In this document: positions 3,870 to 4,087 of the stretch, in pieces
Position numbering within the stretch: the first letter of the stretch is position 1
Layout: every line of letters begins with the position of its first letter
Virus record (IMG/VR): IMGVR_UViG_2609459833_000014
Coordinates: 1 to 4,087 of that record
Length of the DNA stretch: 4,087 bases
From: a virus
Taxonomy: Duplodnaviria; Heunggongvirae; Uroviricota; Caudoviricetes
Reading direction: 5' to 3' (one strand)
Program-made: the position numbers and the translations under genes
The notes under the pieces: model-generated
Told to the model about the DNA's origin: nothing
Seen by the model: the letters and a program-made list of their open reading frames with translations, nothing else
Databases searched by the model: none

Positions 3870-3959
3870 GCAGAATATTTTGCTGAAAAATGCGGTTTGC
3901 TCACACGGACGGATAACACGAAATCCTGCGAACTGACAAAAACTAAGTGAATAAAAGTA

Positions 3960-4000
3960 AAAACCCCGTTTGTTGGCTGCAAGCGGGGTTTTGTGTTTCT
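3960..4000 (+). terminator. Hairpin terminator, probably bidirectional (aaaaccccg ... cggggtttt, A-run 5' and T-rich tract 3')
   Basis: Perfect 9-bp complement between 3960..3968 and 3984..3992, extendable by several more pairs into the loop, followed by ttttgtgtttct. Lies ~90 nt after the endolysin stop. Confidence 0.65.
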
Positions 4001-4025
4001 GACCTTGGATAAGGCAAGGGAGAAC

Positions 4026-4087
4026 ATGGAAAAGTATAAACGAATTCTGTTGAGGTTGACTATGAAAAACGGCCTTGAACTGAAAGC
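4026..4087 (+). CDS. 5' end of an unidentified ORF running off the window (MEKYKRILLRLTMKNGLELK...); product unknown
   Basis: ATG 4026 is preceded by aagggaga. An in-frame alternative ATG at 4062 is preceded by gagg at 6-nt spacing. The frame is open to the window end. Only 20 codons are visible, so no family assignment; the N-terminus does not resemble Rz spanins I know. Confidence 0.3.
   Translation, partial: MEKYKRILLRLTMKNGLELK

Follow-up and report, generated by a model that had tools for sequence, protein, structure and literature searches.

Organisation of the late region

The window, meaning the whole stretch of 4,087 nucleotides analysed here, corresponds to the late region of a lambdoid prophage of Stx-phage-like type, with the following features from left to right.

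1 to ~395, reverse orientation: end piece of an IS1 copy, with the insA ORF at 65-340 on the minus strand
414-2387: SASA-family esterase, 657 aa
2529-2723: DUF1378 ORF
2749-3039: DUF826 ORF
3049-3077: terminator-like hairpin between the DUF826 ORF and the holin gene
3116-3331, plus strand: class II holin of the phage 21 S type, 71 aa, the first gene of the lysis cassette
3336-3869, plus strand: endolysin R, 177 aa, an R21/RrrD-type lysozyme
3870-3959: non-coding spacer, 90 nt
3960-4002: hairpin element, a stem-loop (3960-3992) with an A-run on its 5′ side and a T-run on its 3′ side
4003-4025, plus strand: conserved leader with the Shine-Dalgarno-like AAGGGAG (4016-4022)
4026-4087, plus strand: first 20.7 codons of a 60-aa ORF (A60), truncated at the window end
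4033-4062, minus strand: putative sigma-70-like promoter TAGTCA-18-TATACT, within codons 3-13 of A60

The IS1 piece (window 1 to ~395) stands in place of the upstream phage sequence of relatives, in which the STnc100 sRNA (RF02076 in Rfam) lies about 200 nt upstream of the esterase gene (L001 2656-2872; PhiR12_3). This particular prophage copy has thus been struck by IS activity. The IS1 end stops 18 nt upstream of the esterase start (414), and the insertion parts the late genes from their usual upstream region. The junction between IS1 and the esterase gene had no match in genome contigs, phages, plasmids or complete E. coli genomes, and was absent from contigs that encode an identical esterase. 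Consequently, genes beyond position 4087 are read here from relatives.

Strong terminator-like hairpins at 3049-3077 and 3960-3992 bracket S and R on both sides. The first has a 12-bp stem followed by TTTTTATTT (-22.3 kcal/mol, z = -4.0). A further palindrome lies at 2393-2429, directly 3′ of the esterase stop codon, where an A8 run is followed by CCGCCAG-N15-CTGGCGG. Read on the minus strand, this is a hairpin followed by a T-run within the esterase-holin interval, the reported location of Pas and anti-sRNA genes (bioRxiv 10.64898/2026.05.13.724894; PMC4104026). The consensus terminator scan did not flag the 2393-2429 hairpin, whose loop is too long for it, and the hairpin had no Rfam match; at gathering thresholds, Rfam gave no match anywhere in the window.

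The holin matches PF04971 (5e-35) and the holin families phrog_20 and phrog_9876, and is annotated by PGAP as a 'class II holin family protein'. Its N-terminus, MYQMEK (3116-3127), has methionines at positions 1 and 4, matching the dual-start (antiholin/holin) motif of phage 21 S. R matches PF00959 (8e-25) and the structures 3HDE, 3HDF and 4ZPU, the last being RrrD, at ~5e-19 to 1e-18. It has a hydrophobic N-terminal segment, is called 'lysozyme R' in the annotation of PhiR12_3 and is, by homology, a SAR-type endolysin. The spacer downstream of R (3870-3959) has no notable plus-strand ORF. Alignments show that it is common to Stx phages such as TL-2011c, and 933W and PhiR5_1 also align through it with more differences. 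Megablast matches to ~300 Stx-phage records reach as far as window position 4024.

Spanin genes beyond the window end in close relatives

The first-pass annotation described R as followed by ~90 nt of non-coding sequence, a strong hairpin, and a new ORF behind a ribosome binding site, with no spanin genes. All of these elements are present. The absence of spanin genes holds for the 218 nt left in the window downstream of R, but not further on. We compared the window with five relatives: E. coli UCPROB-002, two NCBI assemblies, phage PhiR12_3 and GCA_000408105 (L003, L015, L017, L001 and L016). They are 99.1-99.8% identical to it from position 388/396 to 4087, and collinear to the last base. 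All five carry R, the hairpin, the 60-aa ORF, a 43-aa ORF (C43) and Rz with an embedded Rz1. The 43-aa ORF starts 14 nt after the 60-aa ORF, and Rz 7 nt after the 43-aa ORF; each small ORF has a strong Shine-Dalgarno sequence and tight spacing to the next gene.

The search for Rz/Rz1 further downstream was successful in the relatives. Their Rz is 155 aa long (PF03245 at 7e-50, phrog_13 at 1.5e-75), and the Rz1 embedded in it is a 61-aa protein beginning MRELKMKLCVLMLLLVVSAC..., with the lipobox LVVSAC and a match to PF06085 (3e-21). Since the window ends 62 nt into the first of the small genes, the spanin genes fall just outside it; from the relatives, we infer that Rz starts ~336 nt past position 4087. 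Judged from these genomes, every close relative has a full lysis cassette, and spanins seem to be missing only because the window stops short of them. The first-pass alternative that an accessory gene had been inserted between R and the spanins is thus borne out, and displacement or loss of the spanins finds no support in the five relatives, all of which have the Rz/Rz1 pair downstream.

Some more distant contigs are built differently. Contigs with a GH108-type endolysin (L030, L038) carry the hairpin and the 60-aa and 43-aa ORFs, with no lambda-type Rz/Rz1 detected within 1.3 kb; their spanin may be absent or of another family. In phiSTEC1575-Stx2k (L006 1649-1831), a small membrane ORF is directly followed by a 60-aa lipobox ORF (FLLVGC) in place of Rz, which may be a different spanin component.

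The 60-aa open reading frame

The ATG of A60, at 4026, lies behind AAGGGAG (4016-4022), and the partial translation MEKYKRILLRLTMKNGLELK runs past the window end. In the relatives the full-length protein has 60 aa and is annotated by PGAP as WP_021566721. Searching the complete ORF against phage protein families placed it in phrog_1115 (1.4e-42, full length), among the unknown-function PHROGs 1115/4493/3246, and not among Rz-type i-spanins. A60 and the 43-aa protein both returned nothing in Pfam, NCBIfam and PADLOC, and matched no Pfam holin family and no 'holin' PHROG; the true holin is the gene at 3116-3331. The 43-aa protein is also a single-pass membrane protein and belongs to phrog_4906, which has no assigned function.

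The first-pass annotation had noted that the ORF lacks spanin features, and this stands for the full protein. The 60-aa form has no PF03245 match, neither window 3870-4087 nor the A60 ORF contains a lipobox ORF, and the sole hydrophobic stretch is C-terminal (approximately residues 30-58). A60 is accordingly predicted to be a single-pass membrane protein. Its 121 homologues are all named 'hypothetical' and come mostly from Escherichia and Salmonella, across which the N-terminus is conserved from the first ATG. Median pN/pS across 25 distinct DNA alleles is 0.22. On this evidence A60 behaves as a real gene under purifying selection. One relative with a replaced N-terminus sits after tail-fibre genes, behind a hairpin of different sequence and before a terminator.

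On the opposite strand, reading frames over the hairpin are open in all alleles. The ORFs found there (73 aa in the window, 128 aa in L001) had no PHROG match and were rejected as genes because they cross the variable hairpin and the 3′ ends of unrelated endolysin genes.

A mobile hairpin and leader

The hairpin at 3960-3992 reads AAAACCCCGTTTGTTGGCTGCAAGCGGGGTTTT, with 14 pairs, followed by GTGTTTCTGA, and was called terminator-like by the scan. With its context (66 nt in all) it has a predicted stability of -21.6 kcal/mol (z = -3.4), equalled by none of 200 shuffled sequences. Read on the minus strand, the stem leads into TTTTTACTTTTATT. The T-run after the stem on both strands makes 'bidirectional', the term used in the first-pass annotation, a fair label. 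Its 14-bp stem has a CCCCG/CGGGG core, with UUUUGUGUUU after it on the plus strand and UUUUUACUUUUAUU on the minus, the form expected of an intrinsic terminator acting in both directions.

A pattern scan of IMG/VR found the hairpin in at least 119 viral contigs, with 16 hairpin variants among the matches listed. Pair 10-24 occurs as AU, UG, GC, UA and GU, with no unpaired case in the 16 variants listed, and pair 12-22 as UA, UG and CG. The outer nine stem pairs are fixed by the search pattern itself; at the free inner positions of the listed variants, 95% of cells are paired, versus 62-68% with the partner column shifted one place. The inner stem thus covaries in this alignment, its pairing kept by compensatory changes. 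The recurrence of hairpin and leader and this covariation, together with the PGAP annotation and phrog_1115 match of A60, go beyond what chance would give. T-runs are kept on both flanks across alleles.

The hairpin is only 33 nt from the A60 start codon. The intervening leader (4003-4025) is predicted to form a small hairpin that takes in the Shine-Dalgarno sequence and the start codon. Leader sequences have a mean pairwise identity of 0.89-0.97 among 50 distinct module sequences, and the alternative 45-aa allele described below shares the leader up to the start codon. The alleles of A60 or its variant taken from Escherichia and Salmonella are all preceded by AAAACCCCG-(15 nt)-CGGGGTTTT, and (C/G)TGTTTCTG and the same leader come next in all of them except the M15-peptidase case (phiSTEC1575). 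In Salmonella and GER2 alleles (L023, L025, L026, L031, L007), an 8-codon leader ORF lies ~25 nt upstream of the main ORF (ATG TGT AGG GAG GTG TGT TCC CTG TGA in Salmonella, a variant of this in GER2), and its stop codon shares bases with the GTG at which the small membrane ORF begins. The window allele has no such leader ORF, and its ribosome binding site is fused straight to the ATG.

What lies upstream of the hairpin varies. Among the matches listed (at least 119 contigs), wherever the contig reaches far enough, it sits just 3′ of an endolysin gene, or, in one contig, of an ant-like gene. The genes found upstream of A60 or its variant encode an R21-type lysozyme, a 179-aa lysozyme, GH108, GH19, an M15 peptidase or an ant-like protein. 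Downstream, the hairpin is directly 5′ of one or two small membrane ORFs in the listed contigs that reach far enough, and mostly Rz/Rz1 come after these. Because the same element follows four unrelated endolysin families (R21-type/Phage_lysozyme, GH108, GH19 and M15), it belongs to the small-ORF module, travelling with the small ORFs as their left end, and is not simply the terminator of R. At the same position, 933W has a different, degenerate hairpin (z = +1.0), so a strong terminator is not obligatory here. By eye, the hairpin showed no likeness to anti-sRNA sequences of the AgvB/AsxR type.

A site of exchange between R and Rz

The expectation that spanin genes directly follow R is satisfied in the K-12 prophages DLP12 and Qin, where a 4-nt overlap of R and Rz leaves nothing in between. 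It is not the norm in the R21-type lineage. A query of R plus the hairpin returned 326 phage records, with the 43-aa ORF in 276 (by tblastn; unannotated in about two-thirds of the matches listed), the 45-aa ORF in 49 and the 60-aa ORF in 14. Among the at least 119 contigs listed, the modal architecture is an R21-type endolysin, hairpin, A60, C43, Rz and Rz1, complete in 57 contigs and identical to that of the window. Where the hairpin and A60 follow an R21-type endolysin and the contig is long enough, Rz/Rz1 mostly come next, and four such contigs among the matches listed show none within 1.3 kb. At least 80% of the 60-aa plus 43-aa cassette is present in 1037 of 5426 complete E. coli genomes (about a fifth), and the module also occurs in Salmonella.

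The slot can hold other cargo. In prophages sharing 97.5% identity with the window as far as position 4024, the sequence changes exactly at the start codon to that of a 45-aa ORF, which has a GTG start at the homologous position and abuts Rz. Other occupants include ant with the 43-aa ORF, a 50-aa variant whose last residues are RWW, and combinations of these. These alignments indicate that the R-Rz slot is a mosaic exchange point at which a conserved hairpin and leader precede alternative cargo. The first-pass statement that some Stx phages carry an antirepressor-like gene at this position was right for 933W (R-ant-Rz) and for the Sakai prophages Sp9, Sp10 and Sp12. PhiR5_1 also has an ant-like gene in the slot, which served as a positive control (phrog_63 at 1e-57). 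The statement does not describe the ORF in the window, which has 60 codons in the relatives.

Several of these small genes have escaped annotation. An unannotated ORF between ant and Rz in 933W (L009 6421-6570) is homologous to the 43-aa ORF (phrog_4906, 1.3e-27). TL-2011c (L002 5696-5831) has an unannotated 45-aa membrane ORF that belongs to phrog_6632, ends in RWW and lies directly before Rz; it is likewise unannotated in H-19B and in Stx1a and Stx2c phages. Relatives of the 45-aa ORF occur in Salmonella phage SPN3UB (same slot), in Salmonella phage SEN34 (baseplate cluster) and in Pseudomonas phage YMC11/02/R656. The A60 member after tail-fibre genes and the presence of the 45-aa family in baseplate and tail regions mean that the link to lysis, a strong association, is not an exclusive one. 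The R-Rz insert was not discussed in the comparative papers on Stx phages and the spanin census that we consulted.

A probable read-through accessory module

We consider it likely, from the sequence comparisons, that the locus is a canonical lysis cassette of the phage 21/Stx type, with a widespread accessory module between R and Rz that is expressed by read-through. The module would comprise the bidirectional terminator hairpin, a leader with a ribosome binding site, and the 60-aa and 43-aa membrane proteins, with Rz/Rz1 following. A consensus scan, which weak or non-sigma-70 promoters may escape, found no plus-strand sigma-70-like site between R and A60. With no plus-strand promoter between the hairpin and A60, the small genes would be transcribed only by polymerase that passes the hairpin. 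Lambdoid late operons are read by a Q-modified, terminator-resistant polymerase. The small genes would then be expressed only during Q-antiterminated late transcription, together with S, R and Rz/Rz1. During lysogeny, stray transcription from upstream would be halted at the hairpin before it reached the membrane-protein and spanin genes; antisense transcription from downstream would be blocked there too.

The most likely site of action of the small proteins is the inner membrane, late in infection, where they could serve as non-essential lysis modulators. Their link to lysis is by association, and late modulation of lysis at the inner membrane is a plausible role. The module itself is an accessory insert at a lambdoid mosaic joint, common and often annotated as 'hypothetical protein'.

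Alternative explanations

The read-through module has to be weighed against several other readings of the same region. That this genome truly lacks spanins, for instance through an IS-mediated deletion past the window in a decaying remnant prophage, is very unlikely. IS activity in this copy is evident from the IS1 piece 18 nt upstream of the esterase gene, and the exact IS1 junction is absent from every collection searched, yet the window remains collinear to its last base with relatives that all continue into A60, C43, Rz and Rz1, and, among listed contigs that reach far enough, most with the hairpin and A60 after an R21-type endolysin carry Rz/Rz1 (the four already mentioned show none within 1.3 kb). 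We can almost entirely dismiss the idea that the ORF at 4026 opens an antirepressor-like (Ant/KilAC) gene such as that of 933W. Although ant-like genes do occupy the same slot in that phage, in Sp9, Sp10 and Sp12, and in PhiR5_1, the ORF stops after 60 codons in every relative (Ant proteins have about 190-240 aa), A60 shows no similarity to the Ant domains (PF03374, PF10547/P22_AR_N and phrog_63), and in the phages that do carry ant the leader differs and the hairpin is different or degenerate. It could also be supposed that the hairpin and leader are a mere recombination linker, and the small ORFs functionless filler. The homology of alternative alleles breaks exactly at the start codon, and the same linker precedes unrelated cargo, as would be expected of lambdoid mosaic joints. 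However, filler would not account for a stem whose pairing is kept by compensatory changes, for the pN/pS of ~0.22 and the conserved A60 N-terminus across Escherichia and Salmonella, or for the strong Shine-Dalgarno sequence and tight spacing of each small ORF, and we regard this explanation as highly improbable.

Less easily set aside, though still unlikely, is a reading in which the module encodes a small membrane protein under antisense-RNA control, on the lines of a type I toxin-antitoxin system or P22 sar/ant. A constitutive minus-strand promoter would produce an RNA of ~70-80 nt that covers the start codon, Shine-Dalgarno sequence and leader, ends at the bidirectional hairpin, and blocks translation of the 60-aa protein until outrun by late mRNA. 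The candidate promoter, TAGTCA-18-TATACT (4062 to 4033, minus strand), reads toward the hairpin and is the sole promoter-like match in the region. It recurs at the same position in GER2 (10/12), Salmonella and the tail-fibre-context allele, making four contexts in all, and the last of these has a hairpin of different sequence in the same relative position. The -10 hexamer, within codons AAG TAT A, does not vary among 31 DNA alleles, variants of 45% identity among them. Synonymous diversity in A60 codons 3-18 is 0.037 per site versus 0.19-0.27 elsewhere (5-7x lower), and an island of nucleotide conservation spans the hairpin 3′ arm, the leader and the first ~55 nt of A60, while the hairpin interior varies. 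The conserved T-runs on either flank of the hairpin also favour this reading, as does the predicted fold of the transcript, a ~75-nt RNA complementary to the start codon and Shine-Dalgarno sequence that forms two hairpins. A60, a small hydrophobic membrane peptide, shares this trait with type I toxins. Against this, the promoter matches are weak (9-10/12, mostly with an 18-nt spacer), and ~0.5-0.9 such matches are expected by chance per region. Conservation of the KYK codons could have protein reasons, and the conserved island could be a linker homogenised by recombination. There is no Rfam match at the site, the TM segment of A60 is C-terminal, unlike that of most type I toxins, and a plus strand without a promoter implies that toxin mRNA needing neutralisation would be scarce in a lysogen. 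The Hfq-CRAC table of Tree et al. 2014 has no orphan sRNA peak in the mappable R-Rz slots of Sakai prophages, but those prophages carry ant with the 43-aa ORF or a short B-like ORF, and no 60-aa allele, which makes this result uninformative on the antisense RNA. The same study reported the Hfq-CRAC orphan peaks EcOnc11, EcOnc12 and EcOnc10 (Sakai NC_002695.2 1946819-1946867, 1779522-1779569 and 2234239-2234287) from Sp10, Sp9 and Sp12, on the strand opposite to the late operon. Their peaks are ~75 nt downstream of Rz in Sp9 and Sp10 and ~350 nt downstream in Sp12, and represent another conserved sRNA-like site beside the lysis cassette.

Comparison with known systems

The cassette with its proposed read-through module has the same gene families in the same order as the contiguous S-R-Rz/Rz1 cassettes of lambda, phage 21, DLP12 and Qin, with Rz1 embedded in Rz. 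It differs from DLP12 and Qin, which have nothing between R and Rz, by ~490 nt of hairpin and two small genes. Cassettes of the 933W/Sakai Sp5 type (S-R-ant-Rz/Rz1-bor) likewise have the same S, R and Rz/Rz1 families. In 933W, R and Rz are also parted by inserted cargo, and a 43-aa ORF again lies directly before Rz; its cargo, however, is a 189-aa Ant-like protein with a degenerate hairpin, where the window has a 60-aa membrane protein and a strong hairpin.

The module also invites comparison with the morons of lambdoid phages (Juhala et al. 2000, as cited in PMC4104026). Like a moron, it is a discrete, variably present, terminator-bounded insert in a late operon, here parting R and Rz, which are adjacent in DLP12 and Qin. 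Prophages otherwise 97.5% identical have other cargo, or none, at this joint. Unlike morons, it has no detected coding-strand promoter of its own, and its terminator is upstream of the genes rather than downstream. Expression of the module in lysogens is therefore not expected.

In phage P2, lysA is an accessory membrane protein gene between the endolysin gene K and the spanin genes lysB/lysC. A60 resembles it in being a non-spanin membrane protein gene at the same relative position in the cassette, although LysA is larger and multi-pass. We speculate that A60 may be a functional analogue of LysA, without a known sequence relationship. For the antisense geometry, the comparison systems are type I toxin-antitoxin loci of the hok/sok type and the sar RNA of P22. 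With these the module shares a small hydrophobic ORF whose ribosome binding site could be covered by a short cis-antisense RNA ending at a terminator, and some of its alleles resemble hok/sok further in having a short leader ORF that overlaps the start. In contrast to hok/sok, it lacks a sense-strand promoter, its TM segment is C-terminal, and both the antisense RNA and any toxicity are putative.

Biological significance

For the claim of missing spanins itself, the outcome matters little, as the cassette is complete in close relatives. What emerges is a very common mobile module, consisting of a hairpin and micro-ORFs, in the lysis cassettes of Stx-type and other lambdoid prophages. Its genes are often unannotated, including in 933W, H-19B and TL-2011c. 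If the antisense reading were true, about one in five complete E. coli genomes would carry, before Rz/Rz1, a previously undescribed antisense-controlled module, possibly tuning lysis. Should the small proteins, or a linked antisense RNA, modulate the timing of lysis, the timing of Stx release from induced lysogens would be affected.
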